IMG/VR virus record: IMGVR_UViG_3300032038_009890
Location: 128,001-192,000 of that record
Source of the DNA: a virus
Taxonomy: Duplodnaviria; Caudoviricetes
DNA length: 64,000 bases
Reading direction: 5' to 3' (one strand)
Under the pieces are notes generated by a model. That model ran no database searches, was not told where the DNA came from, and saw only the letters and a program-made list of their open reading frames with translations. Both the position numbers and the translations under genes were made by a program. Within the stretch, counting starts at the first letter, position 1; each line of letters opens with the position of its first letter. Positions 69 through 64,000 of this stretch are shown one piece after another.

Positions 69-141
69 ATTTGTCTTGAATCTATCTATAATTTCTCTAA
101 TTGGCGAGTCAAGATAATTATAGCTGTCATTCAAGGTTTAG

Positions 142-228
142 TACAGGTGAAGGGATTCGAACCCTCGATAATTCCTATAGAATTGACGGATTAAAAGTCC
201 GTTGCCATGGCCACTAGGCGACACCTGC
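142..228 (-). tRNA. tRNA-Lys(UUU) with a long variable arm
   Basis: Acceptor GCAGGTG/CACCTGT; anticodon arm ACGGA CTTTTAA TCCGT; extra arm AATTC-TATAG-GAATT; T arm GAGGG TTCGAAT CCCTT. Confidence 0.85.
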
Positions 229-4786: not shown

Positions 4787-5800
4787 TTATCCCTCGATGT
4801 GTGAAAACATCTTATCACCCATCAGCCTCGCGACCTTCTCCTGCTTTCTACGATTGTCGATGTAGCGAGTGGTCACAGAAACGCTCCCATGACCCGCTCT
4901 GTCAGCAGCGGCGTAGATATCACCAGTCTCCAGATAGGTATTGGTGATGCACGTAACGCGCATCTTATGCGGCGTGATGTGCTTGTCAAGGCCCTGCGTG
5001 TGCTTGCGAATCATCTTTTCGATGGTCTTCGCGGTAATCCGCTCACGGCCTTCACCGTTCTCGGAATTCCGCAGGAACAGGGCGGAGGTGGTCTTCTCTT
5101 CGCCGCGCTCGGCGAGGTAAGCCTTGACGAGAGCAATCATGTGTTCATCAAGACGGATCGTCCGCTCGTGGTGACCCTTTTCGATGACCTCCAGAGTGCA
5201 GTGGTCAAAATCAAAATCGTCCACATCAACCTCGGAGAGGGCCTGTGCGCGAAGCCCGCTGTAGCACCCAAGCATAAATAAGCACTCGTCACGCTTAGCA
5301 AACAAGGAATGTTCGCGGATGTGCTGAACAACCTTATTCATCTCATCGTAGGTCATGGCTACGACTTTATGCTCAGTCTTTTCCTTTGGGACGATTGCCT
5401 GAAGGTCCTCTAAGTCGATCATGGGGGACTCCTCGATGATCTTGCGCTTAACGAGGAAGTTGAAAAACTTATTCAAAGCGAAGTACACACCCTTGATGGA
5501 GTCATACTTTACTGGTTTTCGAGTGCCATCCTTAAGAAGCCGCACCTTGATCGAATCAAAAAACGCCGTAATAACATCCACGTCGATCATGGTCCAAAGG
5601 TCCTTATCAAATGTGTCGAAACCCTGCTCATCAAGCCAGGTAAAAAACCGCTTAACGTGGTTAAGGTTGACATTCTTGGTAGTCTTCTGGCTCCCGGCAG
5701 ATGTGGAGTAGTACGACCGCAGGATGGGCGGGAACCCCTCCAAACCCTCGATAGCCTTCTGCTCCAACTGCATCTCATGCTCAAACCTTCCAGATAACAT
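4787..5800 (-). CDS. Tyrosine recombinase/integrase (YopP-like)
   Basis: Catalytic motifs SGLRAQAL, EKG, TPHKMR, AGH, TTRY. Confidence 0.9.
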   Translation of the reverse strand: MLSGRFEHEMQLEQKAIEGLEGFPPILRSYYSTSAGSQKTTKNVNLNHVKRFFTWLDEQGFDTFDKDLWTMIDVDVITAFFDSIKVRLLKDGTRKPVKYDSIKGVYFALNKFFNFLVKRKIIEESPMIDLEDLQAIVPKEKTEHKVVAMTYDEMNKVVQHIREHSLFAKRDECLFMLGCYSGLRAQALSEVDVDDFDFDHCTLEVIEKGHHERTIRLDEHMIALVKAYLAERGEEKTTSALFLRNSENGEGRERITAKTIEKMIRKHTQGLDKHITPHKMRVTCITNTYLETGDIYAAADRAGHGSVSVTTRYIDNRRKQEKVARLMGDKMFSHIEG

Positions 5801-5979
5801 TTCTCATTCCTCCTATGCGTTTGTTTAGATTACTTATCGCCTTGCAAGAAATATTTTACCCCCTCCCTCTCTGATTTGCAATAGGTAATTCTGCACAAAA
5901 AGTACCGGTCCCTTTTTGTACATATTGCACAAACCGCACAAAAGGATAAAAAAAAGAAGGGGCATTTGCCCCTTCTCAT

Positions 5980-10813: not shown

Positions 10814-11155
10814 TTACTCCTCCCAATTTTCTACAAACTCAATTACCTGATCTGCCAAGTCCTCGCAGACCTCGCGAAAAGATGCATCCTCAAGAGTCTC
10901 CGTATCATACACCTGATCGCAGGAAGTCATTTCTTCATAGCCTTCGATGTTTCTTCTGGCCACAAAACACGCATCTTCACCGTCGGCGGAGCAAAGGAAG
11001 TGATAGCTGTCCTTACCCATCATTAAAACATGAAGATAATAATACGGAGCATCAGCTTCAAATTCACAGGTAGGCCAAGAAGAATTCGCCAAATGGTCAG
11101 CGATTTTCTCAATTAACTGCATCCTCATTCCCTTGGACTTTTTCATATCAATCAC
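10814..11155 (-). CDS. Hypothetical acidic early protein
   Basis: ORF after the 11202-11230 promoter. Confidence 0.6.
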   Translation of the reverse strand: MIDMKKSKGMRMQLIEKIADHLANSSWPTCEFEADAPYYYLHVLMMGKDSYHFLCSADGEDACFVARRNIEGYEEMTSCDQVYDTETLEDASFREVCEDLADQVIEFVENWEE

Positions 11156-11201
11156 CTTTCTCTTATTTAGTTGTCAAAGATCATATCTCATTGCAGATAT
11201 A

Positions 11202-11230
11202 AGTGTACACCTGTGGCAGAGGAAAGTCAA
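11202..11230 (-). promoter_or_regulatory. Early promoter, copy 3
   Basis: TTGACT-N17-TACACT; boxA-like element at 11168-11182. Confidence 0.75.
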
Positions 11231-11276
11231 CAGTAAATGTTATTTCTCTTTAACATTAACTTTCCCCTAAACCCGC

Positions 11277-38098: not shown

Positions 38099-38104
38099 AA
38101 GGAT

Positions 38105-41100
38105 GTGATTAATATAGGACTTTATGGGTGGTATATAAATATATACAAAGCGGCAACTGTAGTAGGAGTAATGCTTGGTGTAAGAGATGGTTATGATAGT
38201 ACCAAGGCAATGTTTCATCATAGTTTGTTTTCTGATTGGTTACATGAGAATGGAATGAAAACAGACAAAAGAGACGAATCTACACGTGATATTATTTGTA
38301 TGGATTATCAATTTGGATTACGTAGCTACGAGGAAGAAAAGTCACATATAAAAGAACTTAGAAAAAAAGCCCAGAAGATTGAAAATGAAAATGAAAGGAA
38401 TGAAAGACTAAATGTTATAAATGATATAGAATTAAAAATAGATAGTCGCAAAGATAATTACCATAAAATGAGCAAAGATGAAGTAAGAGAATACACTTAT
38501 GTAAATGGTATTTATATTGATTATCCTCAATTTGATAAAAAGAAAAATATTATTGGTTATGAAAGAATTTACTATAAATATTTATACCGAAATCCTTCTA
38601 TGGCTAAAGTAGGAAAAAATATTTGGATTAATGCCGAATTATATGATAAAGCATATGAGCATATTACAATGGGTATTGGTTCTAAAATGCCATTGCATAA
38701 TGCAAAGATAACTGAAATAAGTGCCTACGCTTCTCTACTTGCTTCATCAATTGAAGGATCTATTGTGATACCGGTTGAGAACATTCTTATTCTTCAAGAT
38801 GTAGATAGTTTTTATAAAACCGTAGCTGATGTAATTAGAACCGAAGAATATAAAGTGTACGAAGGTGCAAAGTATGGATGTTTGTCCAACCTAGTAACAA
38901 AAAAGAAATGTGTGATTAGTAGAGAAGATACCGAGGTAATGAACGAACTTTTTGATGGACAGGCCTTGATAGAAACGTCAATTACACCAGATTGGTGTAA
39001 TGGAATGTTATTGCTTAGAAATCATTTTTTTAAAGCGTGTGCATTTAAAACTAAAATCCAATTATTTATAAAAGAGTATTGTGAAGAGCGTGGTATAGAC
39101 TATGATACTTTTGAAGTAGAAGATATGTTTGGTCGTAAACTTGCAAAGAATATACAAATGATCACATCTAATAATGCGATTAAGTATTTGAAGTTTAAAG
39201 ACATACTTGGAGGTACTGCATTATCAGCATATGAATATTGGTGCAATTGGGTAAAAAATGATGGTGATATATTTGGAATAGTTAAAACAGATCATGTTTC
39301 ACATTATGGCATACTCCAGAGGTGTAGTTATCAATTTCTAAACTCATTGCCAACAACAAAAAAAGATATGGAAGGTATAGTTGATACTACTATAAAGTAT
39401 GTCGAAAATCTCAAAAAGGATACTAGCAGTTTTGTAGAGTACTTAAGACAAAATGCAAACTATGTAAATAGTTACGAAATGCTTGCATCATTATATGAGT
39501 GGAATAATGGTATAGGTAGAACAAAATTATTTAAAACACAAAAAAGAAAAATAATAAATGAATATGTAAATGTTTTAAAAAAAGGAAAGATTTTACAATA
39601 CGGAGATAATTTAACCGTATTGGGAAACCCATATGCAATGTTGTTATATGCTGTTGGAGAAAACTGGGAAAATGACCCAACTCTTGGACCAGAAGAGGGT
39701 GTTATTCAAGTATATACAAAACGCTTTAATGACGGGGAATATTTATGTGGTATAAGGTCGCCACAGAATGGCCCATCTAATTTGGGATATTTTCATAATG
39801 TTAGGCACCCGTTGATGGAGAAATATTTTGATTTTAGTCCCAACATTATGGCTGTGAACTGTATCCATACAGATGTACAGGCTAGGCAAAATGGTGAAGA
39901 TTTTGACTCAGACTTTAATTTTGTAACTAATCAGCCAGAAATGGTGAAGGCTGTAAAGAAAGCTTATGAATTATATCCTACTGTTGTAAATATGGTTCCA
40001 GAAAGCAGTACTTCGTATGATAACACAATGAAAGATTATGCCATAATGGATTCTAAGATGCAATCAGCGCAAAAGGCAATTGGTGGTGCGTCTGATACAG
40101 CACAACTAGCACTTAGTTATTATTATGATAGAATTGAGAAAGGAATTGATGATGAGGTAACGAAACAATTATATGAAAATGTTTGCATCCTTGCTGTGTT
40201 GGCTTAACTAAATGGGTCAGTTCTAGAGAAATCTAGTTCTAAAAATATTCGGTGAATTCTGGGAAGGTTTGAAATTTATTACATTAGCAAGGAGAAAATA
40301 ATGAATACTAACGATAGAACATTTACGTTATATATGATGACGTTTCCTGACAAAAAAGTTTATATTGGGATTACAAGTCAAAATCTATCTAGAAGATTTG
40401 GGTATAAAGGTTCTGCTTATAAAATGCAACCAGTATATGAAGCAATTCAGAAGTTTGGCTGGGATAATATTAAGAAAGAAGTAATTGAAGAAAATCTTAG
40501 TGTGGAAGAAGCTAAGAAAAAAGAGCAAGAATATATTGAATTGTATCAAAGTAAAAATGGCGTATACAATAAGTCAAAAGGAGGAGAATGTGGTTCTTTA
40601 ATTACTGCAAAGTTTGAAGTGGACGGAGAAGTATATGATTCTCATGAATTAGCTGAAATGGCTTTGGCAGAAGGTGTTGATTATCATGATATTACTACAA
40701 GGATTAATCAGCATGGGTGGTCTTTAGAAAAAGCACTTACTAAAGAAAAGATGAAGAAAAATCAAAAAAGTGGAATACAAAGGCAATTTGTATTCGTTTA
40801 ATGAATTGATTCAATTTTCAACAGTAGATGGATTGACAGTAGATGATTTGTATACAAGAATTAATCACCATGGATGGGATGTTGAAAGAGCTTTGACACA
40901 ATCCAAAGATGTTAAACTTCAACCAAAAGGCGTTGGTGAAAGAAAATATTTCTATAATGGAAAATGGTGTAATTCATACGATTTGTTTTTATTAAGGAAA
41001 GATGAACGTATTAAACAAAGCGATATTGTATCAAGAATAGAACGTTCAAAATGGGATATTGAAAAAGCAATATCATACCCGCCCAAAAATATGAATAATA

Positions 41101-42134
41101 AATATATGTATAATGGGAAATATTATACATCTAAAGAATTAGAAGCGTTATGCCCAAATGGATTACAATATAATACGATTGTATCTAGAATATAATCAGG
41201 ATGGTCTGTTGAAGATGCCGTAAATCTTCCGGCGAATGAAAAACCTGACAAATTAAGTAAAAATTAATAATATTTATCAAACTAACCCAGAGCCAAGATT
41301 GTGAAGTTGAAATGTAACAATAAGGCGTAGAGACTAGAAAGGTGACTAGACAAAGAATAATCCTTTCCACGAGTGCCGAACATCTAACCAGATAATGCTG
41401 AAGATGAAGATATAGTCCGATACTCCAGAGTATTTGGAGACGCCCAAGATAAAGAGCTTGGGATATAACATATGCAATTAGCAATAGATGGATGTAAAAA
41501 GATTTTTGATATAGATGTAAATGATGAAATAAAACGTATACGCGCGCAGGAATGTATGAATAGAGAGAAAGATTTTCCTAAGTTTATGGCGTATACGCAT
41601 AAGATTCCTGTTACCAAAAATGGGAAAGATCGTCCTTATGAAGATATTCAAAAAGACAAAAAAAGAGTCCAAGAAAGAATAGATGAAACAATCGAATGCC
41701 CAATGAATTGGATGCATGATTGTTTAGATAAAATTCAAGGTGCTGAGCATGAAAGTAATATTGATACACTAGAATTTTTAATTGATAAGCCAACAAAAAG
41801 AGTTGATCCTCGTCAAATGAATAAAGTAAGAGATATTATTGAAAAATATGATAGTCTTGTTAGGCATTATATTGCTACAAATAATAACGAAGATGACGGG
41901 ATTGACGAAATTGATCAACTTCAAAAAGCGACGGATGAAGTAGTTGAAGCTGTTTCAAAGATAAAAATGTCCCAAGCAACTATGTTTAGATTAATTCAAA
42001 CATGTTTAGGATATGAGGGACGTGTTAATAAGAATAAGTCATATAAGAATGCTACAAAATATGCAATTAGAACTATGAATATTCTATATAAATCAAACCC
42101 GGAACGATTTTTATCATGTTTTAAAAAGGGATAA
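38105..42134 (+). CDS. YonO-like single-subunit RNA polymerase; exons 38105-40204 and 41475-42134 (about 919 aa spliced)
   Basis: FDGQAL, LLRNHFFK, RSP, NGEDFDSD catalytic loop; spliced junction ILAVLA|QLAIDGCKK; followed by HU as in SPbeta yonO-yonN. Confidence 0.85.
40205..41474 (+). ncRNA. Group I intron in the RNA polymerase gene
   Basis: P1 GGCT|TA..TGGGTC with U.G pair; GAATTCTGGGAA at 40254, AACCCAGAGC at 41284, GTAGAGACT at 41327, AAGATATAGTCC at 41407; terminal G. Confidence 0.9.
40301..41267 (+). pseudogene. Intron-encoded GIY-YIG homing endonuclease with a frameshift and a premature TAA
   Basis: TLY..KVYIGIT; four RIxxxGWxxExA repeats; frameshift near 40765-40770, TAA at 41193. 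Confidence 0.75.
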
Positions 42135-48424: not shown

Positions 48425-48499
48425 GGTTCTGTGGTGTAGTCCAGTTAACACACTAGCCTGTCACGCTAGAGATCGTGGGAGCAAAGCCCACCAGAATCG
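48425..48499 (+). tRNA. tRNA-Asp(GUC)
   Basis: GGTTCTG/CAGAATC; CTAGC CTGTCAC GCTAG; GTGGG AGCAAAG CCCAC. Confidence 0.85.
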
Positions 48500-48589
48500 C
48501 TATGCGCAGTTAAGTCACTGCGCCATATCCCTTAAGGAGAAATTAATGGAGTCGCCTTGCCCGAGGCATGTTCGCAATATTGGGCATTA

Positions 48590-48660
48590 CGAGTGCGTGG
48601 TGTAATGGAAGCACAAGACATTTGGGTTGTTTAGGAGACGTTCAAATCGTACGCATTCGA
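48590..48660 (+). tRNA. tRNA-Pro(UGG), possibly an 8/4 fold
   Basis: CGAGTGCG/CGCATTCG; AGACA TTTGGGT TGTTT; GACG TTCAAAT CGTA. Confidence 0.7.
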
Positions 48661-48823
48661 CTGGTATTTTTGAGTGTGTCACACCATGCTCAGGAATACT
48701 TTGCTAGTGATGAGACTAGCTACTTTTGTACGGAATAACTTTGGATAGGTTGTTATAATTTAACACTGATAAACATTGGTTCGTGTTTTCCACTATAATA
48801 TTATGAACCAGAAAGGCTTAAAA

Positions 48824-49561
48824 ATGATTAAGTAGGAACTGATTAAATTAAAAGGGATGAATCTCTTAGAACAAGACTTTGATGGAGATTCTATAATGAC
48901 TGTGTAGTTGAAAGATACTGGTAAAATTTATGTTGGTGTGAAATGGATTACAGAAGCATTGGGCATGAATAAAAATCATCACGATAGACAAGTGAAGAAT
49001 ATTCAAGCAGATATTGTACTTTCTCAAGGTGCGTCATATTTGACGCTCCCTACAAAAGGTGGAAATTAGAAGTCGTTATGTATTGAATTAGATTATTTAC
49101 CGTTATGGTTGGCAAAAATTCATGTGACACCAAATATGCTAAATGAGAATCCAGAAATAGCAGAAAAACTTATAGAATATCAGTTAAAGGCAAAAGATGT
49201 TTTAGCTAAGGCATTTTTAGGGAAATCAGAAGAATGGAATCTGCAACGTGAAGTTGGTAAGCTTGATCGAAAGAGATTAACAACGAGTATATGCAAGAAT
49301 ATAATTGATGCAAAACCATTAGATTATGCTCTATATACAAATATGATTTACGAAGTGTTGTTCAATAAAACAGCGGCACAGATACGAGAAGAAAAAGGAT
49401 TGGAAAAGAAATCACAATTAACAAGAGATCATTTTACAGAAAAAGAGCTAGGTTTGATAGATGAAGCTGAAACAATTGTAACAGCATTAGTTTCGTTAGG
49501 TTTTAAGAAAGATTATATCTTAGATCAATTAAGAAGGAAATATCAAAAGGCAATTGAATAA
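48824..49561 (+). CDS. P22_AR N-terminal antirepressor-like protein with three in-frame TAGs
   Basis: IYVGVKWITEALG..PTKGGN*KSLCIELDYLPLWLAKI; TAG at 48833, 48905 and 49067 (the last at the conserved GGxQ Gln). Confidence 0.85.
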
Positions 49562-49846
49562 CCTAATCTTTTTCCCTACTCCACAATTAGTAGAGGGAGA
49601 TTTTACGTACCTCAGCCACACATGAGGTGCTTATATGCCCTGACCCAAGGTGCTAAACAGGGTCATAATTGCATGAAAAAGCCTCTAGAACCACGTCGAG
49701 CGCTTTAGACGATAATTAACTTGTCTATGCGTCTGGCGTGTGTCTGAGGGCTTTCTGAGCGAATCCGCGGCGGCTCGTAAATAGGGTTTCGACTACCCTA
49801 GCGGATTTTGGCTAGTTTAGGGCCGTGAAAAGCTAGACGAAATTAG

Positions 49847-50131
49847 AGGGGATTAGTTTAAAGGGAAAACAGCTGACTCTCATTAAAAATAGGACGTTTT
49901 GATTGAAAAGTCAAAAATGAATAGTGTCAAATTCGGCGGAGGTCTTAATAAGAAAACGCCGAGCTAAGCTTAATTGAAAGTGTAGAGACTTAATGGCACG
50001 ACCTAAGTTTAAAATATGGTGAAGACAAAGTCCAGACTACAATGCAATATGCAGTTACGGCGACGTAATGTAGTAAGAAATCAGTAAGTGCGTTGAAGCC
50101 GCAATTGAGCGTTCGAATCGCTCATCCCCCA
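49847..50131 (+). tRNA. Amber suppressor tRNA(CUA); exons 49847-49880 and 50078-50131
   Basis: D arm GTTT AAAGGGA AAAC; GCTGA CTCT|AAA TCAGT gives loop CUCUAAA; long variable arm; GAGCG TTCGAAT CGCTC; GGGGAT/ATCCCC. Confidence 0.88.
49881..50077 (+). ncRNA. 197-nt ORF-less group I intron inside the anticodon
   Basis: P2 TTTTGATT-GAAA-AGTCAAAA; P3 GTGTCA/TGGCAC; P4 TTCGGCG/CGCCGAG; R GTAGAGACT; S AAGACAAAGTCC; U before the 5' site and terminal G. Confidence 0.9.
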
Positions 50132-50525
50132 GCAAAACACAGTTAAATATGAGGATTTGCAAACCTTATATGGGAAGGTGTCTTCTATCCCCTCCCCTTT
50201 CTGTGTTTGATTTAGATGATCAAAAACATTATGTTTTCCAAGGGATTGGCCTCGTTAGTCAGTTCTTGATTTTAGTAAAGGAGCAAAGTGACTTGAAGAA
50301 TTATTTTCACGCGACAATTAATTTTATCACAGAATATAATCGCATACAATACAAAATGGCTTATGGTTAGCAAGACACGTCTGACTAGGAAGACGAGTTT
50401 ATCCAAGATTTTAGCGAGAATCTAGCCGAGGCGCTGATGCATGACGTGGGTGAAAGCGAATTTGCGCAGAGACAGCTTTACGACTCGGCCAAGATTATTT
50501 GTGAAGAGTATAAGGAAAAAGAGAT

Positions 50526-50927
50526 ATGAAACGTATACGAAATATTGAGCTTGTTTTAGAGAATTGTGAGTTTGTAATTATAGATACCGAATATATTAAT
50601 GAAATAAAAATTATGGATATTCAGAAAAATATTATTGGCTATTCTGGCGCAAGCCATCCTAGTGTATATGAATATTGTGATAATGTACATATGGTAATTT
50701 ACGGCAGAATTAATGATACGGAGCAAGAAGGTTTGTTCTCTGATGATTATTCTATTGCGCAGAGATTGAAAGAAGGCCGAGATATTACTCAGATAGAGGT
50801 GCTTTATGATGATTATCCGCCCGAGATTTTGTGGGTGAATTTTAAGGGTGATTATTTTAATCAGTATCAATCTGGGTGTGTGGATGAAGAAGGTAATATT
50901 TGGATTGATATAAAGCGCCCTGTATAA
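50526..50927 (+). CDS. Hypothetical protein
   Basis: AAGGA RBS; IELVLENCE..DITQIEV. Confidence 0.65.
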   Translation: MKRIRNIELVLENCEFVIIDTEYINEIKIMDIQKNIIGYSGASHPSVYEYCDNVHMVIYGRINDTEQEGLFSDDYSIAQRLKEGRDITQIEVLYDDYPPEILWVNFKGDYFNQYQSGCVDEEGNIWIDIKRPV

Positions 50928-50938
50928 CTAGGGTGTTT

Positions 50939-51025
50939 GCAGTTGTGGCAGAGTTTGGTTGAATGCACCTCCCTGCTAAGGAGGCAATCCTTCGGGATTC
51001 ACTAGTTCAAATCTAGTCAACTGCG
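50939..51025 (+). tRNA. tRNA-Ser(GCU)
   Basis: GCAGTTG/CAACTGC, G73; CCTCC CTGCTAA GGAGG; variable arm AATCC TTCG GGATT. Confidence 0.92.
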
Positions 51026-51029
51026 GTTC

Positions 51030-51101
51030 GCCGATGTAATTCAATTAGTAGAATATTGGATTTGTAACCCAAAAACTACGGAGCATAACCGTACTTCGGC
51101 T
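51030..51101 (+). tRNA. tRNA-Thr(UGU)
   Basis: GCCGATG/CTTCGGC; TTGGA TTTGTAA CCCAA; TACGG AGCATAA CCGTA. Confidence 0.75.
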
Positions 51102-51212: not shown

Positions 51213-52460
51213 ATGGGTTATACACATGGTATATCGAAAGATGCAAAATTTAGACAATGTACGTGTTGTGGAGAAACATATCCAAACACAAATGAATATT
51301 TCTATAAAAACAATAGAAATGGTTTAGGTTCTATTTGTAAACAGTGTACAAGTAAGAGAAATAGAGAGATAAATAGTGAATTAAAGAAGAGATTTGTTAA
51401 TAATAATATAGAATACGATGGAGATAAAACGTGCATTTGTTGTGGTAGATCATTACCAAATTCATACAAGTATTTTCCAATAGATAAAACAACTAAAACT
51501 GGACTTAGGAATAAATGTCGTGAATGTAGTACAAATTATGGCCATTTTTTAGATGATGATGCTTTACGATATGAAATATGGACTAAAGAAGAAGATGAGA
51601 TACTTATAAAATACTATAAGGATTATCCCGGAAAAGAATTGAAGGAAAAGTTTCTTCCCAATAGAACAGTAAGAGCGATAGAATGTAGGGGTGGTTATTT
51701 GGGCCTTCAAGGGAAAAGTGAAGAAGGCAAGGAAAAAGCGAATAAGTATCGTTCGGAAATAATTAGTGATATTATGACTGGAAGAACATTTAGCGATGAG
51801 TGGAAGAAAAAGATTTCAGATTCAACTAAAAAATATTACGAAATACACGATGGTTATTGGAAAGGAAAACATAGGTCTCCTGAGCAAGTAAAGCAAATGA
51901 GCGAAAGAATGAAAGGGAAATGGGCGGGAGATAAAAATCCAAGACATATTCATCCCTTAAATGGCGCCGAAAACGGACGGTGGAAGGGTGGTATAAATCA
52001 GACATATATGGAGCTTCGTTCTGAAACAAAAGACTGGCAAAAAGAATCTATGGAATTCTGTAATTATGAATGTATAATAACTGGATTAAAATTTGATGAT
52101 ATTCATCATACTTTTCCTTTCAGAGATATTGTTGATGAGATATTTTCAAACATCTGTTTAGATATAAGAGAACAAGTGTTAGATTATACAGAAGATGAAT
52201 TTTAGGTTTTACAAGACGAAGTACATTATATGCATATATTGTATGGATTTGGAGCATGTTTAAAAAAAGAAATACATAAATTATTTCATGATAATTACGG
52301 ATATACTAGTATTACGCAATATGATTTTCTAGATTTTATTTATAGAATTGATTCTGGCGAATTTGATAAATGGTTTATAGATAATAATATCCCAATAAAT
52401 ATAAATTATAATTATGTTGATTATCTAGAAAAGATTGCATTTGTTTTAAATAATGAATAA
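51213..52460 (+). CDS. Zn-finger/NUMOD3/HNH-like endonuclease with one in-frame TAG (52203)
   Basis: CxxC pairs, WKGG, CIITG..DIHH, CLKKEIHKLFH; two ORF-track pieces in frame across the TAG. Confidence 0.75.
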
Positions 52461-52477
52461 AAGGAGGTACTGCTTCA

Positions 52478-53674
52478 ATGGCAGTTATAAAAGCACCAAA
52501 GAAGCTGACTCCAACACAGCTTCGTGAGGAAAATGAAAAATTAAAAGAAAAACTAGAAAATGGTGTTCGTTGTATAGTTTGTGGCATTATGAAAGATAAA
52601 AGTAAGTTTTATATAAATACAGATCCACATTGTAAATGTGAAGTTGGATGTGTATGTAAAGATTGTGCCAGAAAAATTGCATTAAGGGTAGATGAGAATG
52701 GTGAAGAACATGAAGTAACCAAAGAATCTTGTATAGAAGCGCTTAAACTATTAAACAAGCCATTTATCAATACTGTATGGGATGCTAGTGTTCAAGAATC
52801 TGATAATTTAATCGCAGGGAAAACAAAATCAAATCCTTGGGTCGCTTATATTAAGAACATAGCTATGGTCCAATGGGTCGGTAAGAATTTCTTTGACTCT
52901 GATATGTTTAAAAAAGGTTATGTAGATAATTCCTCTGATGGAAAAACAGAAATAACGTCTATACATGATATGACAGATGATGTACGTTCAACTTATGAAA
53001 TTAATAAAAAAACTACTATAAGGTTTTTAGGTTATGATCCTTTTGAAAACGAATCTATTGAAGAACAGCCACTGTTGTATGCAAAATTAGTTAGTTATTT
53101 TGATGATTCTGTAAAAGATGACGGATTAAAGTTGGAAGCTGTTATAGAAATAGTATAGAGTTTTAAAGATATAAAAACAATTAATGATGCTATTTCTAAA
53201 TACAAAAAAATGTTAGGTGATAATCCATCAGTAATATCTACTATTAAATCACTTGCTGAAACAAAACAAAAAATGATTAGTTCTGCTTTAGCACTTGCCA
53301 AAGACAATGGAATATCTGTGAATCATAATAATAGTAAAAGTAAAGGTGCAGGAACATTAAGTGGAATTATAAAAGAAATGTCAGAGATGAATCTGGATGA
53401 TATTGAAATTAACACATTTGACTATGAAACTAATAAGGCTATTTCAGATATAATGGAAGCCAATTTCAGAAATCAAATGAATCAATTAAATCCTGATGAA
53501 AATGATTGGGAAAAAGAAATATATCACCAAGCAAAGTTATTGCATAGCTTACAAAATGAGAGAGATAAGGCGGTCGAATATTGTAGGTTACTTCGTAAAG
53601 AGAATAAAGATTTAAAAGAGTTTCTTAAAGAGCGAGGTATTATAGACGATGCGTTGAATGTAATAGATGAATAA
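52478..53674 (+). CDS. YonG-like protein (candidate terminase small subunit) with one TAG (53156)
   Basis: CxxC..CKDC; pieces in frame across EIV*SFK; precedes the large terminase. Confidence 0.75.
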
Positions 53675-55586
53675 AGACATCACATTAATGGGTGATGCTA
53701 TTGAGGAATTTAATCCTAAGAATTTTACATATTTTGTAAAACCTACTTATTATGATATGTCAAATCTTAGACTTGAAGGACTCAAAAAAACCGCAGAAAT
53801 TGTATAGTGGGGGCGAAGAAATCCTGTTAAATTCTGCGAACGATTTATGGGAATAGAGTTCCTAGATTACTAGAAATATGTTTTTATGGAAAGTTGGATA
53901 ACACCATATGTTGTTTGGTGTATGACAAGAAATGGTGGTAAGACTACGTTGGGTAGTCCGTTCCTAATGGCAAAAACTCTTTTAATTCCATATTTCGAAG
54001 CATATATTTTATCTGGTACTGGTGCGCAAAGTATTGGTATGATGAAAAAGATAGAATAGATAACTAAAAAAGAGATTGCTAGTTTTACTGGATTGACAGA
54101 TGTATTTATGAATGAATTAGTTAAAAGTCAAGCCAATTCAACTGGTATATCACATAATCCTAATTCGTGGTCTTACAAATTGTATTCAGGATCAAGTCTT
54201 GCGACAATTAATAGTAATTATGACGGGTCGAGAGGTAAACGTAGCAGATTAAATTTTTATGATGAAGCCTCGTATGTAATGGAAGATATGTATAATGCCA
54301 CCCTTCCATTTGTTACGCAGAATTCAGATTTCGCATTAGGTGGGAATGTCGATGTTTCTCTTCTTGCGCCTAATTTTCCGAATCAGATTATATTTGCTTC
54401 ATCTGCGGGGTCAGTAGATGATTATTTTTACAAGATGTATAAAGAATATTCTCTTCATAGTATGGCAGGAGATAAACGTTATGCTTGTTTTGATATCGAT
54501 TGTGATCTTGTTATGAATGCTACATATAACGGAAAAGTATACCCTGTCCCACTTTTGACGCAAGAAAAAATTGATACTGAAATGAAGATTAATCCAATAA
54601 AAGCGAATAGAGAATATAGGAATAAATTTGATATTGATGGTGGCGATGAGATTATAGTAAAGAAATCGCAAATACTTCGCAATAGCGTAGTAAGGCCACC
54701 AGAGTTAGTAAACATAGACGGGAAAAGTTTATACGCAATTGGTTGGGATTTGGCCGCAAAAAAAGACAACAGTATATTAACTGTTGGTAAATTGATACAT
54801 TCAGATAAACGTGGATGGAGAATGGAAATAGTAAATTGTATAAATTTATTAGATAAAGAAACTAAAAGGCCATTAACTACACCAGAGCAAGTAAAACGTG
54901 TAAGAGAAGAAATGATTAACTATAATGGTACTGGTTCAGCTGATTATGAAAATATCAAGTATCTTATGATGGATGCAGGATCTGGTGGTGGTGCAAGTCA
55001 AGTATTAACATATTTATTTGATGATTTTTATGAAGATCATCACAAAGGCGAAGAAGAATTTCACCATAAAGGAATGATTGATAAAACATATGATTTCTGT
55101 CAACCATATATTAAAAGATATCCAGATAACGTTGATATTGTTAGAATGATTGAACCAACAAAATACAAAGTATAGATGTATACAAATTTAATAGAGCTGG
55201 TTGAACAAGGATTGATATCATTTACGGCAGACTATGATTATCATGGCATCTTGACAACATTAATTGAGGAAGATGGCGAAGAAAAAGAATAGATATATAA
55301 ACTATCATATTAGGAAGAGCAAGCATTGAAATAGATTGATGCTTTAAAAGAAGAAATATGTCACATGTATAGATATAAATCATCTAATGGTAATATAAGA
55401 TACGATCTTGCTCCCGGTTTCGAGAATATTATTGGCGATGATAGAGCATACACACTTGCTTTATTGTCAAAATGTTTAATGGACATGAGACAACAGGATA
55501 GTATAAAAAAGAAGCCGAAAAGTGATAGTGAATCTATGAAATAGATATTTACTGTTCGTCAACCCAGAAAAGTAACAAGATTTTAA
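53667..55586 (+). CDS. terL: Terminase large subunit with eight in-frame TAGs
   Basis: LDY*KY Q-motif, TRNGGKT Walker A, FYDEA, ASSA, IGWDLA, MDAGSGG, DDRAY; TAG at 53805, 53871, 54057, 55173, 55290, 55311, 55332, 55542. Confidence 0.92.
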
Positions 55587-55600
55587 AGGAGGTGCCGCTT

Positions 55601-57163
55601 ATGGCGGACAATAAAAAAACCACTGATAGTGGCACAAAAGAATCACAGTATAAGCAAGGATTTAATTCTGCTTATTCTTACAAGCGTGATCGCGCGCAAA
55701 TAATGGATTTTGCTAAAATATAGGACTATATACAGCGGAATCCTACTAAAACATCTAATAGAGTCTTTACGCAATATACAAAAGACATTGTAAAAACCTA
55801 TCTGCAATCACCTGCTACCAATCAAGATACATTGCGCGAGATATCTAGGTTCTTATGTAGAAACTCTATGTTATATCAGAAGATGATAATGTACCTTGCT
55901 TCTATGCCTTTGTTTTATTACACTATCACTCAAGTAAATAATCTTGATGAAGAAATAGATTCCGAAAAGGCAATGAAGGATTATCAAAAGGTGCTTGAGA
56001 ATTTTAATAGATTTAATATAAAAAAAGATATGTATACGGCGTTATATATCGCAATTAGAGATGGCTTCTACGTTGGATATGTTTATGATGATAAACAAGG
56101 TAGAACGTTTTTGATGCCTCTTGATGTACAGTATTGCCGTATTATGGGTAAGAACTATGCCGGGGAATGGGTAGTATATTTTAATGCGGCTTTCTTTGAC
56201 GCAGGGACAAACTCTGAATTTGTTGAAGGAATTGATGGAAACGTTGAAGGGGCCACATGGGCACCAGAGTTTATTGAAGGATATAAGGCCTATAAGAGTA
56301 AAGGTCGTGACTTTCAGTGGTTCCGTCTTGACCCAAAATATTGTTGTGTGCTTTTAATTGGCCCAGATGATGAATTTTCCTTCCCTCTTCCGCATTTTCT
56401 CCCATTGTTTACTGATTTGATGGACTTACTTGATTTACAGCAGATTCTCATGTCTAAACAAGAATTAGAGAATTACGCGTTGATTATAAATAAGATTCCT
56501 CTTGTGGATAACGGAAATTCTGGGGACATTGATGACTTTGCTATTTCTAATGAAATGATTAATTATTTTCGCAATCTAGAAGAAGAGGCTGTACCTGACC
56601 TAGTTGGCGTAGTTACCGCACCATTTGACGTAGATAAGATTATGTTTAAGGACAGCGCGGTGGCAGGAGATACTGATGCTCTTGGACAGTCGCTTAAGAA
56701 TCTATTCTCTAATAGTGGACTTACCGAGACAATTGTTTCTGGTGGTGACTCATCTTCTAATATGTCAATTAAGTTAGCACAATTGTGCGATCAAGCTAAT
56801 GTATGGGTTTGGGTAAATAGATTAGAGTCATGGCTTGATTTTTATATTAAAGAGAATATTGCTAAAGGATATATTTTTGAGATTCTAAGAATAACTTGGT
56901 ATAACGAGGATGATTATATCCAAAAATATAAGGATATAAGCACGCTCGGAGGCCCCGCTTTGGATTATTTAAGCGTTGTTGAGGGATCTCCTTATAAAGC
57001 GATTAATAAGATAAGATTTGAGAATGCTATTGGGATTAAAGATATAATGATTCCGCTTCAGTCGAGTTATAATTCTTCCAGTAATTCTCCGGGAAGGCCA
57101 ACAACTGATGATGATGAATTGTCTGGGAGTGCGGAAAGAAGTAGGAATACCCAGTCTAAGTAA
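55601..57163 (+). CDS. Portal protein (YonE-like) with one TAG (55721)
   Basis: Follows terL; AGGAGG RBS; C-terminal PLQSSY..GRP. Confidence 0.8.
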
Positions 57164-57186
57164 AATAGAAATGAAAAGGTGAAGTA

Positions 57187-57366
57187 ATGTTAGGACATTT
57201 TGTAAAAACATCTGATGAAGAAACAGCACGAAGACTCAGAGAGGCAGGTTTTGTAGAGCTTGCTAAAGAAGATTCTAAGTGGGTATTTCTTAATGAGGGT
57301 GGAAAATTAAACTTTGAAGAAAACAAGGATTTAAAAATTACATATAATGATATGTTGTGTGTATAA
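57187..57366 (+). CDS. Small hypothetical protein
   Basis: FVKTSDEETA..GF..WVFLN; 59 aa. Confidence 0.55.
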   Translation: MLGHFVKTSDEETARRLREAGFVELAKEDSKWVFLNEGGKLNFEENKDLKITYNDMLCV

Positions 57367-57415
57367 GCTCTCCTCTCTTCTGGAGAGTTAATCTATAAAG
57401 AAAGGAGGAGAAAAA

Positions 57416-59044
57416 TTGCACAAGATACTTACTTATAATGATTTAATGAGGTTTTGTGAAGAACAGAATTATACTAGTTTTAGCGCAAAGGATTCTGGAT
57501 ACTAGATTTGTGTATAGGTTCCTGCTACATTTGAAAAAGATGAGGAATACGAGGATGATTCTCTTCTTGTTGGAAATGTAAAACTTCTGCACACAGAAAT
57601 TAATCGTAATAACTCTGCTGTGACCGAAGCCGCCGCGAAGAAGATGATGAAGACGATTGCCTATAAGCCTATTCTTGCAAACTTTACAGATGTTAATGGT
57701 GAATTAGATTTTACATCTCATGATTTTGATCTGAATGATGATGGCACGATCACGTACTATGAGAAGCAAGTTGGGTGCTTTACGTCTGATAAACCTTATA
57801 TGGAAGAAGACGGAGAACATAAGGATAGGAAATACGTATATGCGAAGTGCGCAATCCCTCGTCAGTATACTGAAGCGGCAAATATTATTGAGCGCAAAGG
57901 TGGTACAGATATTAGCGCGGAACTTGGAATAAATAAACTTTCTTATGACAGCAAATCCAAATGTCTTATTCTTGAGGATGTGGTGCTGATGGGTGCTACT
58001 CTTCTTGGCGTAGACGCTGTATCTGGAGATCCGATTGCTCCGGGTATGGAAGGTGCAAAAGTAGATATTGCGGATTTTAGCGTAGACAAAAATTCTGTTA
58101 TAAATAAGACTGATTTAATTAATGAGATTACTCAAGCAGTTGTTGCGAAGCTTGATGATCATATTGCGAAAAATTTCGCGAACGACAACCAAGGAAAGGA
58201 GGAATGTGGTTTGGAAAATTTTGATGAAAAAATCAAAGATGTTGAAACTGAGACCGTTGAAGATAAGACTGTCGAGGAAAATACCACTGAAGAGGAAACT
58301 CCTGAAGTGGTTGAGATGAATGCAGAGGAATCTGAACAGGAAGTTGAAGAGACTAATGAGGAAGATAATTCTGAGCAAGAAGTTGAAGAGGAAAGTACCG
58401 ATGATAAGGTAGTAAATATTGAATACTCTGTAAATTACAACGGTGAAGTAAAAGTATTCTCTTCTTCGCTAATGGAGAAGCTTAACGCACTGTATGAGTT
58501 AGTTAACACTACGTATGGTGAGGCTGATAATACTTGGTATGATGTTGACGCTTATGATGAAGATAAACTTGTTATTATGCATGATTATTGGAATGGTAGG
58601 CACTATAGACAAAATTATCAGGTAAGGAATGATGTGTATTCTCTTAAAGGAGATCGTGTCGAAGTGTTCACGACTTATCTTACGAAAGATGAGCAAGCTC
58701 AAGTTGAGTCTATGAAAGCTAATTATGCTGTTATTTCTGAGAAACTCGCCAAGTATGAGGCAGAGCCTGAGAAGATTGCTATTTTGGATTCTAAGGAATA
58801 TACAAGTATTCGTGAGTCTGCGGAATTTGCCGAGCTTCGTGAGGAAAAGAATCATTTTGATTTTTCTGTTGATGAGGTAAAGAGTAAGCTTGATAGTATC
58901 CTTCTGGCCTATGCAAAATCTGGGCAGTTAAATTTTGCCCGGACTAAACAGGAAGAAAAGACCGAAGCGCCGAAGAAAGATTTCTATGCATTTGCTAGGA
59001 TTGAGAGAAATACAAGTTTTTTGGATGGGCTTCTGAAGAAGTAA
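57416..59044 (+). CDS. Prohead protease/scaffold (YonD-like) with two TAGs (57503, 57515)
   Basis: AGGAGG plus TTG start; LHTEINRN, KPILA, SAEL, PGMEGA; acidic coiled tail. Confidence 0.75.
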
Positions 59045-59123
59045 TAAAAGAAATATAAATTATGTAAGTAACAGGAATTGGCCTGTTATTCTTCTATTAA
59101 AATATGAAAGGAGATAGATAGAT

Positions 59124-59741
59124 ATGGCTATTTATGGGAATTTGGACGAGCGTCCAATTGGACAGCATGGTGTGTTTGAAGCTTCGCTTCTTAAAGCCAC
59201 CATTTCCGGTCATCTTTGGGATTGTCTTGCAGTGACCGAGACCACCACTGGTTCTGGAGATAATATCAAGACCGAGAGAACACCTATTGATATGGACAAC
59301 GGTGTATGTGTTAAAGTAGGGGATTTTACAAACTTTAAGGACGGACTGCAAGAGAGGTATTGCACTATTGCGGGAGCGAGGGATAAAGTTGGTGTTACCG
59401 GGTCGGTCGTAAATGTAAAGGATGGGCGTACGGCTCTTGAATCGACTGAGCCTTATTTCTTTGTTCGTGCAGGAGAGGATTCTAAGGTTTATGAGGTTCA
59501 AGGAGATCTGTATGATGGTGATATCTTTGGCGTTGGTTTGCATCAGTTTACCTAGGCTACTCAGAGTCTTGTAAAGCGCGGTAACTATGTTGTACTTGAT
59601 GGTACTGGGAAGTATGTTGCTCAGGCGGCTAAGCCAACCATGACGAATTATGGATTTGTTGCTTAGATTCATAGTACTTGGACAAATAATGTTTATACTA
59701 TTGTTCGTCTGTACGTTATTCAGAATGTTGATAATAACTAA
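59124..59741 (+). CDS. Capsid decoration-like protein (YonC-like) with two TAGs (59553, 59664)
   Basis: DMDNG..GDIFGV; lies between the protease and capsid genes. Confidence 0.65.
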
Positions 59742-59764
59742 TTTAAGAAGGGAGGGAAAGATAT

Positions 59765-60868
59765 ATGAAAGATATTACTTATTTTAGTGCTAATGTTGTA
59801 AAATGTTTTGATAATAGCATTGACAACATGAAGGTATTTAATGATCTTATGATGGATACTGCTAATAATGTTTATGACAAATATTCTAAAGCAGATTCTA
59901 ACGAGATGATTCGTAATCAGTTTAATAAAGTTCTTGGTATTAATTATCGTTCCGCTACCCGTACCGAGCGTCGTTAGGCTCTGAGGGCACACGGTATTGA
60001 GATTAGTTCTATTATCGAGAACGTGCTTATTGACAGGATGGTATCTGGTATTAATGAGCAGAACATGCCTATTATGCGTATTGTTGAGGATAGGAATATT
60101 GCTCTTGGTGATATCAACTATTTTACTATTGACGCGAAAGCCCTGCTTCAGGTTTCTAAGTGGGGGAGCGGCCATCATGATATAGTACGTTAGAAAATCT
60201 TACCTGGTAAAGGATTTTCAATTGATGTCTCCAAGTATGTAATTAAGACTTATGCATCTTATGATGAGTTTATGATGGGCAAGGTAGATTTTGCCGCTCT
60301 TATTGACCTGCTTTACAGGAGTATTGAGAAGTATCGTTTCCAAGCTCTATATGAGAATGTTATGGCTCTGGATACTTATCTTCCTGCCGACATGAAGGCT
60401 AGTATTGGTATTGCAGAATCTACTAAGCAGGATATCCTTAACCATATTGAGAAGGTCAGTGCTACCACTGGTAAAGAGGTTATGCTTGTTGGCACCCGTT
60501 TCGCCCTTCAGAAGCTTCAGAGTACTGTAAACTACAATATGTGGTCTGACAACATGAAGGACGAGCGTTATCAGAATGGTATTCTTGGCAATTACGAAGG
60601 TTATGAGTGCATGGTACTGAACCGTATTAATGCCGAGGGCACTAGGGATTCTATCTTTACCGCTAACGATAATAAGAAGATTTATATTCTTCCGATTGAT
60701 CCTGACTTCAAGCCGATTAAGCGCATTAACAGCGGTGATGTTGAGTACTTTGAGCGTGGCATGGATGGTTCTATGCAGGACCGTACCATGGAAGGTGAGG
60801 TTTGGTACGAGGAAGGTATTGGTATCATAATTGACGAGCTTTATGGCGTAATCATTGATAACGCTTAA
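59765..60868 (+). CDS. Major capsid protein (YonB-like) with two TAGs (59975, 60191)
   Basis: Continuous 367-aa frame once TAG is read; GSGHHDIVR*KI; position in the head module. Confidence 0.8.
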
Positions 60869-60903
60869 TTAAATGTTACATTGATTAAAAGGAGAAGTAA
60901 ATA

Positions 60904-61581
60904 ATGAAAGTATTTGAATTGTCAAAGGAATTTGACGTTACAAATAAAGAAATGATTGACTTTCTTAAAGGGAAGGGATACAAGGTTTCTAGTCATAATC
61001 AAACTTTAACTGATGAGATGATTGACTCCGCCAGAAAGGACTTTATGAAATCTGAGGATGAGAATAAGTCGGTCAAAGAGGAAGAAGTGGCTCCAGTGAA
61101 GAAAACAACTAGAAAAGCTGTTCCTGCTAAGACTGTGAAGCATTTTGAGCCTACGGATATGATTAGGTGTCATAGTGTTTCTCCATGGCCTGTTGTTAAG
61201 CCGGGTGCAAATCAGGTTTATCGTTGGCCATATTTTGGCTATGAAGAGCTTGTTGCGTACCGCGATCTTCAGTCATGGAAGCAATCTCAAACTATTAAAG
61301 GACCTGAGATCATTATTGATGACCCAGATCTTTGCGAGCTTTGGAAAAATGATCTGGATAAGGTTTATAAGATGTATTTTAATGTTTCTTATCCAGAGGA
61401 ATTTTTTGATGTCGAAGATGAGGAATTTGAGGATTTGCTCAAGAAAGCACCAAAGACCTTCCAAGAAGTTATCAAATATACTGCAATGGATATGATTCGT
61501 AACGAGAATTATCCCAGTATTCAAAAGATTAAGATTATTGATGATGTGTTGAAGACTGGCATTATTGAGTTTGTAATTTAA
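60904..61581 (+). CDS. Protein with an IF2-N-terminal-like domain (YonA position)
   Basis: MKVFELSKEFDVTNKEMIDFLK..VSSHNQTL. Confidence 0.7.
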   Translation: MKVFELSKEFDVTNKEMIDFLKGKGYKVSSHNQTLTDEMIDSARKDFMKSEDENKSVKEEEVAPVKKTTRKAVPAKTVKHFEPTDMIRCHSVSPWPVVKPGANQVYRWPYFGYEELVAYRDLQSWKQSQTIKGPEIIIDDPDLCELWKNDLDKVYKMYFNVSYPEEFFDVEDEEFEDLLKKAPKTFQEVIKYTAMDMIRNENYPSIQKIKIIDDVLKTGIIEFVI

Positions 61582-61601
61582 TATTAACGGAGGTGATGTT
61601 T

Positions 61602-62057
61602 ATGACCTCTGAAACCGAAAATATCTTTTCGCGGTTTTATAACCGTGTCGAAGATTACAAAATAGCAGGTTTAGAACAATAGATAGTAGATGAAATGTTG
61701 AGTGGATATTTAAAGACGGCTATATCTTAGCCACGTGTGCGAAGATTATTTAAAAAAATATTCTTTGATCCAGATATAGGAGAAGTTGAATATACTATGT
61801 TAGATGTTTGGGATAACGACACTGATTAGGAATATGTTGAGGAAGTTTTAGCATTTGGTATGGTGTTAGCTTGGATGTCTCCAAGATATTACTCTACTCT
61901 GCTGACTCAATAGGCATTTACTAATAAGGAACAGTCGTTTTATTCTCAAGCAAATCATATGGCTGAAATCAAGAACATGTATGAAAAAGCTAAAATTGAT
62001 TTTAATAAGTATATTCGAGATAGAGGGTATTCGCTCTCTTTAGTTAACGCAGAATGA
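61602..62057 (+). CDS. Head-tail adaptor-like protein (YomZ-like) with four TAGs (61680, 61728, 61827, 61911)
   Basis: GGAGG RBS; LAFGMVLAW, FYSQANH. Confidence 0.7.
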
Positions 62058-62389
62058 TAACAAAATATGGTGAATTACCAGATCATTAGATATCTACCAT
62101 AAAGAAATATCTGCGTTCCAAAATATTTTATTTACTATTATATGTTGACCCAAAAGAATCGATTAAATACCAAGATGTTGATGTTAATAAAGCTTTTAAT
62201 GATATATTTCATCAACTTGTTGGTTTTAATAATATAATGTTTGAGCCACCAGAATTGGTTATAGTGATGAATTATTTAGAAGCCGCACGAACTATTTATA
62301 ATAGCGCGGATTTTGATTTTCATTAGTATCGTAAACTGATCTTGGATGCGGGAAGCAAGATTATGGAAGTGAAAGAAGGTGATTCCTGA
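62054..62389 (+). CDS. Hypothetical protein in the virion module with two TAGs (62087, 62324)
   Basis: Start and stop overlap the neighbouring genes; KIFYLL..YRKLILDA. Confidence 0.65.
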
Positions 62390-62929
62390 TGGCAATCACC
62401 AAAGAAATGTATTCTAAGTTATTAGGAACAAATACTATGGGTAGAGCTAGAAAAGCGGATTCTGATATGGTAATGGCGGAAACTTGGTGGAATGACATTT
62501 AGGCTCAGACGGCCTATTGTTATGATTATTCGCATGATATTGGGGATGAAAGGTTCTTTTTGCGGGACCTGCACCCAGATAGAGATGCGAATAAAACACC
62601 CATTGCCGTAAAGTTTATTCGCCATGAATTGCAGTCTCTTAACAAGGACCCTGTGAGCTTTTGGCTCTAGTTTATGCCGGGGCAAGAATGTAATTTAGAT
62701 TACTATTCGTCTACGCTTGGCAGATATAGGGCTACGTGGCCTGTAGGGTTGTATTTTGATATACGGGCCGAGGATGGAAAGTATAACAAGTGGTTATGTG
62801 TGAATACTGCGAATTATTGGGGAAATCAGTTTCCTACTTATCAGATTCTACCTTGTGATTATGTTTTTTAGTGGATTCATGATGGATATAAGTATGAGTG
62901 TCCGGGAGTACTTAGCTCACAAAATTCGT
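62389..62929 (+). CDS. Head-closure/neck-like gene, exon 1, with three TAGs (62500, 62668, 62869)
   Basis: TWWNDI*..WL*FMP..PVGLY..KWL..ILPCDY..GVLSSQNS, then intron. Confidence 0.65.
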
Positions 62930-64000
62930 AGGTTATGCGCTTTACATTGGAAACAGTGTATCGAAAGTTCCTTAATTTCTGGGAGGACTTTATTGAGGAT
63001 AAAGTTTATCAGAAGCGAAGTCGGATTTATTCGAAACGTTCAACGAGCAAAGTAGGGCAAGTGCCTGAAAATAGGAACCACCTAAGTCGTAAAGATATGG
63101 TGTTGATGTGCTCTAAACTTATAGGTGACTATAAGAAAATCATCTTATTACTTAGGTTATAAGACAGGACAGGGAGTAGCTACCTTTTGTAATGGCCTCT
63201 AACGTTACAATTACTGTCTTTAACATATTATTTTATAGAGGAGGAATAATATATGTATAAAGTTGGCAATAGATTCGAATTTACAAATGAAGAAAAAGAA
63301 CAAATTGTAAAAATGTTTGTAGAACAAGGATTGTCCATGAGAAAAATACAATCGATGTATAATATAGCTAGATCCAATCCAATCGCAAGAGTGTTAGATG
63401 AATATGGTATTGATCATAGTAGAGGAAACTTATCTGCATTTAAACCAAATTTTCCGGATGGAATATATAATAAAAAAGAAGAAAAAAGAGTTATTGATGA
63501 AATCAGCAAAATACCATCAAAAGATCAAAAATATAATATAAATGATAAGTTTTTTGATGATTTGAGAAATCCGACATCAATATATATTATCGGTTTATTA
63601 TATGCTGATGGATGTAATCATAGTGAAACGTCTATTACTCTATCACTTGAAGAATGTGATCATGAAATTTTGGAAACAATAAATCAATTATTGAAAAATG
63701 AAAAACCAGTTACATTTCAAGATAAAAGTAATAAACATGATTTCGGATATGATTATGAAAACCAGTATCAACTGACGATAAATAATAAAAGGATTGCTAA
63801 AGTATTAAGTATACTTGGAGTAGTACCAAGAAAAAGTTTGATATTGGAATTTCCGAAATGGCTTCATCCAAGTATGTACTCGCATTTTATAAGGGGAGTA
63901 TATGACGGAGATGGATCTGTATATAGATATTATAAAGATGGAGTTCCTCGTAACACTACATTGACAATTACATCTACATAGCAGTTTTGTAAAGCAATTA
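62930..64000 (+). ncRNA. Group I intron (5' boundary approximate; runs past the window end)
   Basis: P3 GTTCCT/AGGAAC; AATTTCTGGGA at 62974; ATCAGAAGC at 63008; GTTCAACGAGC at 63038; GATGTGCTCT at 63105 (covarying P7). Confidence 0.75.
63253..64000 (+). CDS. Intron-encoded LAGLIDADG homing endonuclease; TAG at 63979 read through, truncated by the window
   Basis: YIIGLLYADG and HFIRGVYDGDG motifs, PRKSL. Confidence 0.85.

Follow-up and report, generated by a model that had tools for sequence, protein, structure and literature searches.

How does a phage whose late genes are open only when TAG is read through obtain a reader of that codon, if the one tRNA gene able to supply a CUA anticodon is itself interrupted within the anticodon, and what is the interruption doing there? 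The question is raised by a locus in a 64,000-nt stretch of viral DNA (the window), which runs from base 128001 to base 192000 of a single IMG/VR virus record of 217,075 bp. This record has 37.6% G+C, is estimated to be 98% complete and is assigned to the provirus class in IMG/VR. An earlier note on the window had proposed an amber-suppressor tRNA whose anticodon is created by group I intron splicing, and had gone on to suggest that splicing could time the translation of late genes or keep a lysogen free of suppressor.

A tRNA gene in two halves

On the plus strand at 49847-50131 the sequence reads as a tRNA(CUA) gene in two halves with 197 nt between them (Table 1). The 5' half ends in GCTGA-CTCT and the 3' half begins with AAA-TCAGT, as the earlier note had claimed, and the insert bears the two marks ascribed to it, a U before the 5' splice site and a G as its last base. 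Among the possible joins of this kind (a U before the 5' site, a G at the intron end), CUCU/AAA is the only one to leave a loop of 7 nt between the stem strands GCUGA and UCAGU, which places the intron between U35 and A36 (here a slash marks a splice junction in exon sequences and separates the two strands of a helix). Joined in silico in this way, the exons give an 88-nt sequence that ARAGORN folds into a complete cloverleaf with the anticodon loop CUCUAAA and calls tRNA(cta); the same call, with a 197-nt intron, is obtained on the precursor when introns are allowed. The CUA anticodon exists only once the group I intron has been removed, which upholds the central structural claim of the note. 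As read from the spliced sequence, the mature tRNA has an A1-C72 mismatch, G2-C71, G3-C70, G10, A73, a 21-nt variable arm and no encoded CCA, and its ligated exon junction would be expected to read GCUGACUCU-AAAUCAGU.

That the insert is a group I intron is borne out by the Rfam model RF00028 (Intron_gpI, gathering score 50 bits), which scores 53.5 bits over 49865-50054 (E 1.1e-12) when 49600-50400, 801 nt, is searched by itself. Genome-wide it is the top-ranking group I match (E 7.4e-14), and a scan of the whole window at the Rfam gathering threshold missed it. The earlier note had warned that standard scanners may overlook the split gene, and they do: within the window default ARAGORN reports 4 tRNAs and the Rfam tRNA model 6, in neither case with tRNA(CUA), which ARAGORN recovers only with introns allowed. 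No second CUA tRNA was found in the 217,075-bp record, searched with and without introns allowed.

Table 1. Features of the suppressor locus and its surroundings, with positions in the window
Feature	Position	Strand	Description	Basis
tRNA-Asp(GUC)	48425-48500	+	In the tRNA cluster around the suppressor (48425-51101)	ARAGORN/Rfam
tRNA-Pro(UGG)	48590-48661	+	In the same cluster	ARAGORN/Rfam
tRNA(CUA), 5' exon	49847-49880	+	Acceptor 5' strand (A1 opposite C72), D arm, anticodon stem GCUGA, loop CUCU through U35	ARAGORN with introns allowed and on the spliced sequence; sequence
P1	49878-49894	+	Exon UCU (49878-49880) with guide GGA (49892-49894); U35·G wobble at the 5' splice site	Guide co-varies with exon, suppressor vs Leu
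Group I intron	49881-50077	+	197 nt, no ORF, putatively IC3-like, omega-G at 50077	Rfam RF00028, 53.5 bits; nhmmer homology to phage tRNA-Leu(UAA) introns
P2	49897-49916	+	Hairpin UUUUGA/UCAAAA	Paired in 5/5 introns, sequences differ
P3	49924-49999	+	GUGUCA (49924-49929) with UGGCAC (49994-49999), enclosing P4 (49932-49938 with 49957-49963), P5 and P6	Compensatory changes in L081, L015, L076 and L053
P7	49987-50032	+	GACUU (49987-49991) with AAGUC (50028-50032); bulged A, flanking G-C; guanosine-binding helix; encloses P8	Pairing check
P9	50037-50073	+	CUACA/UGUAG, with P9a; P9b UUACG-GCGA-CGUAA, GNRA tetraloop 50060-50063	Sequence; pairing check
tRNA(CUA), 3' exon	50078-50131	+	A36 A37 A38, anticodon stem UCAGU, 21-nt variable arm, T arm, acceptor 3' strand, A73; CCA not encoded	Sequence; ARAGORN
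tRNA-Ser(GCU)	50938-51026	+	In the tRNA cluster	ARAGORN/Rfam
tRNA-Thr(UGU)	51030-51101	+	In the tRNA cluster	ARAGORN/Rfam
Late genes	51213-64000	+	Tightly packed, open only with TAG read-through; portal at 55592-57163	TAG aligns with Gln in relatives

Related suppressors and the intron family

With the portal protein and a pair of conserved intron motifs as queries, relatives were fetched from IMG/VR and JGI/ENA metagenomes. Related contigs yielded four more CUA tRNAs with an intron, all split at CUCU/AAA and all called tRNA(cta) by ARAGORN when spliced. Their introns measure 201 nt in L081 (a 1.6-kb contig whose downstream flank matches that of the window), 231 nt in L015 (record G004, 202 kb), 196 nt in L076 (record G001, 205 kb, with terminal repeats) and 674 nt in L082 (a 25.7-kb contig), the last containing an ORF with HNH and HNH_3 domains. 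A sixth suppressor, in the sister phage L004 (77% portal identity), is intron-less; it matches the intron-bearing G001 copy exactly in both the anticodon arm and the variable arm, and it lies 75 nt upstream of late ORFs with 4, 5, 14 and 3 in-frame TAG. The intron is thus present in five of the six related suppressor genes, a distribution as compatible with some benefit as with a homing element, but a heavily recoded phage with an intron-less CUA tRNA indicates that it is dispensable. Matches to group I introns number nine in G004, three or four in each other related genome and four in the present one.

In a further relative, G002 (IMGVR_UViG_3300021387_001709; loci L005, L059-L068), which is estimated to be 98% complete and has late ORFs with 12, 9, 7 and 3 in-frame TAG, no CUA tRNA was detected with introns of up to 3 kb allowed, by a CTCTAAA hairpin scan or with a suppressor-exon HMM, so this clade may have another route for decoding UAG. 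Searches for more distant copies gave little: an exact 18-mer from J6/7-P3 had no match in IMG/VR, a 16-mer junction scan returned 54 loci that were all chance matches, a pattern scan of genome contigs gave no host or prophage copy, and blastn of the suppressor locus against GenBank phages gave no match.

The helices in Table 1 were assigned by hand and their pairing verified by script, because MAFFT alignments shift P3 and P7 by one base and RNAalifold puts a spurious GUGUAG/CUACA helix in place of P3. P2, P3 and P4 (TTCGGCG/CGCCGAG) lie where the earlier note had placed them, with complementary strands, and so do the R and S elements, inside which the P7 pairing is also complementary. P2, P3, P4, P7, P9 and P9b are fully complementary at homologous positions, with differing sequences, in the window, L081, L015, L076 and one Leu intron. 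Across these five introns P3 reads GUGUCA/UGGCAC, UGUAUU/AAUACA, GAAGC/GCUUC, GGAAC/GUUCC and GCCAUC/GGUGGC; P7 is found as GACUU/AAGUC, GGACAU/AUGUCC, GAUCAU/AUGAUC and GACUA/UAGUC; and the P9b loop is always a GNRA (GCGA, GUGA or GAAA in relatives). RNAalifold, run on three sequences, counts 16 pairs changed on both sides. All five suppressor introns end in GUAAG. P1 extends over 4 bp in L015 and L076; the window copy has a P1 of 3 bp and a weak P10.

The guide tracks the exon, suppressor UCU or CUCU being paired with GGA or GGAG (GGA(G/C) overall) and tRNA-Leu CUU with GAG. This co-variation lends independent support to the 5' splice site and indicates that the ribozyme has been retargeted. 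By nhmmer the suppressor intron is homologous to introns of phage tRNA-Leu(UAA) genes split at CUU/AAAA (E 1e-46 to 1e-61 for L053 and L050), with about 70% identity in the core; such introns occur in phage contigs L053, L050, L054, L072 and L078, the source of one contig being a human gut assembly. More distant relatives are introns in apparent tRNA-Arg(UCU) genes (L048, L051, L052, L056-58). HNH_3 ORFs occur in long members among the Leu and Arg-like introns and, together with the HNH ORF of the L082 suppressor intron, point to mobility. In a tree from 104 core columns, suppressor and Leu introns intermingle and neither one origin nor several is supported. As regards the Arg-like introns (L048 6179-6368; L051 6818-7509; L052 1722-2408; L056-L058), the spliced loop would be CUUCUAA and P1 is not cleanly fitted; ARAGORN mislabels the tRNAs that carry them as Gln, Ser or Stop.

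Judging from its size, its host site and the homologous phage Leu introns, the suppressor intron can be classed as IC3-like. Like the tRNA-Leu(UAA) IC3 intron, whose classical reports in 1990 reportedly came from the Shub and Palmer laboratories, it is about 200 nt long and lies in the anticodon loop, with a U·G at the 5' splice site, a terminal G, a P1-P9 core and a GNRA-capped P9 branch. It differs in its host, a CUA suppressor in a phage genome, and in its site, which follows loop nucleotide 4 (between U35 and A36) and not nucleotide 3 (between U34 and A35), one position further 3'. Williams 2020 (10.1101/2020.01.27.920355) names the bacterial and plastid tRNA-Leu(UAA) site Leu.3Ug (CUU/.../AAAA) and gives 21 site classes in bacterial genomes; under that naming the suppressor site would be 'Sup.4Ug'. 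Group I introns of tmRNA sit in the T-loop, unlike this one.

Our full-text literature search brought up no paper describing a phage suppressor tRNA with a group I intron. Phage-encoded CUA tRNAs with TAG = Gln are known from code-15 gut phages (crAss-like, Lak and jumbo phages; PMC7886860, PMC6784885, 10.1101/2021.08.26.457843, PMC13037316). The suppressors described there are uninterrupted and were found by tRNAscan-SE, whereas in the present gene a ribozyme interrupts the anticodon and default scanners are blind to it. Unclassified 'enigmatic' introns have been described in tRNAs of Lak megaphages (Devoto et al. 2019; PMC6784885) and of jumbo phages (PMC13037316). They too occur in large recoded phages and vary in presence among close relatives, but their reported hosts are Tyr(GTA), Thr(TGT) and further tRNAs, the papers give no Rfam class for them, and one of them may contain a tRNA gene of its own; neither group I identity nor a place in a suppressor was described for any (PMC6784885, PMC13037316).

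Three more tRNA genes of the present phage, at 123-128 kb of the record (L001 4414-4532, 1271-1409 and 2466-2579, all on the minus strand), have inserts of 40-65 nt in or next to the anticodon arm, which are too short for group I introns. Two of these inserts share ACGTGRCT..ATAGTCA..CAGCAAAT with a conserved hairpin. They may be tRNA inserts of another, unclassified kind, comparable to the 'enigmatic' Lak introns. As sources of a CUA anticodon these genes were rejected, since none can yield one.

TAG recoding and the genome around the gene

Along the record, the density of in-frame TAG is near zero at 55-120 kb (minus strand) and 0-0.6 per kb at 155-175 kb, and it reaches 1.8-6.9 per kb from 175 kb to the end (1.1 in one 5-kb bin) and through 1-55 kb. 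The suppressor gene, at 177.8 kb, lies at the boundary of the TAG-poor and TAG-rich blocks. The earlier statement that it heads the TAG-rich region is right as to the rise in density from 175 kb but not in the strict sense, as TAG-bearing ORFs also occur upstream, such as that at 48776-49561. As in the code-15 gut phages, recoding is found mostly in late and structural genes, and early and integrase genes are standard-coded. Two tyrosine recombinases (integrases) are encoded, both without in-frame TAG; the one in the window (4787-5803, minus strand) has none at all.

Once TAG is read through, ORF coverage of the plus strand rises from 33 to 52 kb. At 29 TAG sites in late ORFs, relatives have Q at every conserved column, which indicates that TAG is read as Gln in this phage, as in code 15; at variable columns the relatives mostly have K, E, R, N, D or T. 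The long variable arm of the tRNA had prompted us to consider Ser, Leu or Tyr as the meaning of TAG, and these were ruled out by the Q at all conserved TAG columns. No release-factor gene, GlnRS or other recoding gene was found in the phage genome. The portal belongs to phrog_2739 (E 1e-83) and is 25-28% identical to portals of large Bacillota siphoviruses, a weak hint of a Bacillota host.

Charging of the predicted suppressor with glutamine can be proposed from the protein alignments and from the likeness of its acceptor stem to that of tRNA-Gln, with a weak 1:72 pair, G2-C71, G3-C70, G10 and U35. In the L004 and L076 suppressors, the D arm and the anticodon stem also resemble tRNA-Gln. The 21-nt variable arm of the window tRNA is unlike that of canonical tRNA-Gln, and the discriminator is A73 in the window and L082 and G73 in four of the five other suppressor copies. 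A type II-like variable arm of about 19-23 nt is common to all six CUA suppressors (window 49847-50131, L004 3878-3969, L076, L081, L015 and L082), with a similar loop in five (UUGAAGC, CUGAAG or CUGAG) and a different one in L082. The 1:72 pair is weak or mismatched in all six (A-C, A-U, G-U or U-U), each time with G2-C71. A Gln-type tRNA with an extra arm is unusual. Descent of the suppressor from an intron-bearing tRNA-Leu(UAA) was considered and rejected, the bodies being 37-51% identical to Leu and no closer to it than to other tRNAs. Elsewhere in the window, a tRNA-Lys(UUU) at 141-228 (minus strand) is 88 nt long and carries an extra variable arm of 15 nt, an unusual feature in Lys tRNAs.

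Several neighbours of the gene deserve mention. Just upstream, at 48776-49561 (plus strand), lies a homologue of the P22-type anti-repressor (Ant) with three in-frame TAG; if the phage is temperate, synthesis of the anti-repressor would itself need the suppressor. The first ORF past the tRNA cluster, 51213-52460 (plus strand), has an N-terminus like those of HNH, endonuclease VII or Lar proteins (phrog_5558, phrog_2255) and could be a free-standing endonuclease adjoining the ORF-less intron. A promoter and terminator scan around the suppressor gene gave nothing better than shuffled sequence. Further away, a GIY-YIG endonuclease ORF (40256-40801) followed by a match to the group I core (41162-41439, 30 bits) lies between ORFs 38099-40207 and 41469-42134, and the stretch 40256-41439 probably represents another group I intron, one that carries an endonuclease ORF and interrupts a protein gene. 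Weaker hits to the group I model occur in the record at 194407-194698 and 10897-11254.

Passenger, switch or relic

We consider it likely, at a probability of roughly 0.75, that the locus is a working UAG-to-Gln suppressor gene that has been colonised by a mobile self-splicing group I intron, and that the intron is a tolerated selfish passenger and not an evolved timer. The gene is almost certainly functional and dependent on splicing, judging from sequence comparison, since the ribozyme core is intact and has changed in a compensatory manner, the exons have been maintained, and a UAG decoder is needed with no other at hand. The precursor would lack a CUA anticodon and would be unable to decode UAG until the ribozyme had ligated CUCU and AAA: guanosine would attack at the U35·G wobble of P1, and the exons would then be ligated after the omega-G. 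The intron would come from a mobile IC3-like family that inhabits anticodon loops of tRNA genes in phages, its guide having been retargeted from the classical CUU/AAAA of tRNA-Leu(UAA) to the CUCU/AAA of the suppressor. Splicing competence would have been kept because the tRNA is needed for the translation of the late genes.

The reading put forward in the earlier note, that of a splicing-gated code switch in which the intron delays the suppressor or makes it conditional, leaving lysogens and early-infected cells without UAG read-through and holding back late-gene translation until splicing takes place, is disfavoured and appears improbable. It can draw on the gene being the sole CUA tRNA in the genome, on its place at the boundary of the two blocks, on the temperate life style suggested by two TAG-free integrase genes and by the provirus class, and on the intron being there in five of the six related suppressors. 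It can also draw on published models in which recoding regulates late or lytic genes (10.1101/2021.08.26.457843). The boundary position and the temperate features do fit that idea (10.1101/2021.08.26.457843), but the idea needs no intron, and control of transcription of the tRNA gene would gate equally without one. A gating intron would always be present where the switch operates, and the L004 CUA tRNA, directly upstream of a heavily recoded late module, has none. The HNH-bearing copy at the same site in L082 marks a homing element, and the family also occupies tRNA-Leu and Arg-like genes unlinked to recoding. The three to nine group I matches per genome likewise tell against a timer or lysogen safeguard. 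At 197 nt the intron is a minimal core, with no sensor or extra domain. Small group I introns of tRNAs are in general fast self-splicers at cellular GTP levels, which also argues against a delay. Co-option of such an intron, whereby ribozyme folding and guanosine supply would control the suppressor and thus the translation of TAG-bearing late, lysis and anti-repressor genes, is likewise doubtful; if it were true, the efficiency of splicing would determine when the code switches or would prevent read-through in lysogens, and the phage would have a ribozyme-controlled change of genetic code.

It is still less probable, and in our view very unlikely, that the intron is protective, either by conferring immunity to the homing endonuclease of its own family or by hiding the anticodon loop from anticodon nucleases of the host or of rival phages until maturation. 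HNH endonucleases do travel with the intron family, an HNH/endonuclease VII-like N-terminus is encoded 1 kb downstream in ORF 51213-52460, and an occupied homing site is immune to cleavage. However, immunity to its own endonuclease is an ordinary consequence of homing and not a separate function, the loop of the mature tRNA is as exposed as in any suppressor, and no anticodon nuclease was identified.

That the intron has simply killed the gene, with UAG decoded by a host suppressor or another phage tRNA, is hardly credible: the recoded G002 without a detectable CUA tRNA (which would allow for another decoding route in the clade) and the odd inserts in several other tRNA genes of the phage speak for it, but the ribozyme core is complete, five diverged copies having preserved its pairing through compensatory changes, a full cloverleaf is formed by every set of exons, the insert-bearing tRNAs cannot give a CUA anticodon, and no release-factor or other recoding gene was found.

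With the suppressor read as functional and its intron as a passenger, this phage would have a reassigned codon that becomes readable only after RNA-catalysed splicing, a link not described in the literature searched. Recoded phages in which no suppressor could be detected have been noted before (Yutin et al., PMC7886860; PMC12386605), and intron-split suppressors may be one concrete answer for them. The comparison with the Leu introns catches a mobile tRNA intron family in the act of changing hosts, with its guide retargeted to a new tRNA and a new loop position. Finally, the natural intron-plus, intron-less and endonuclease-bearing alleles of one suppressor provide a test system for telling neutral from regulatory introns.
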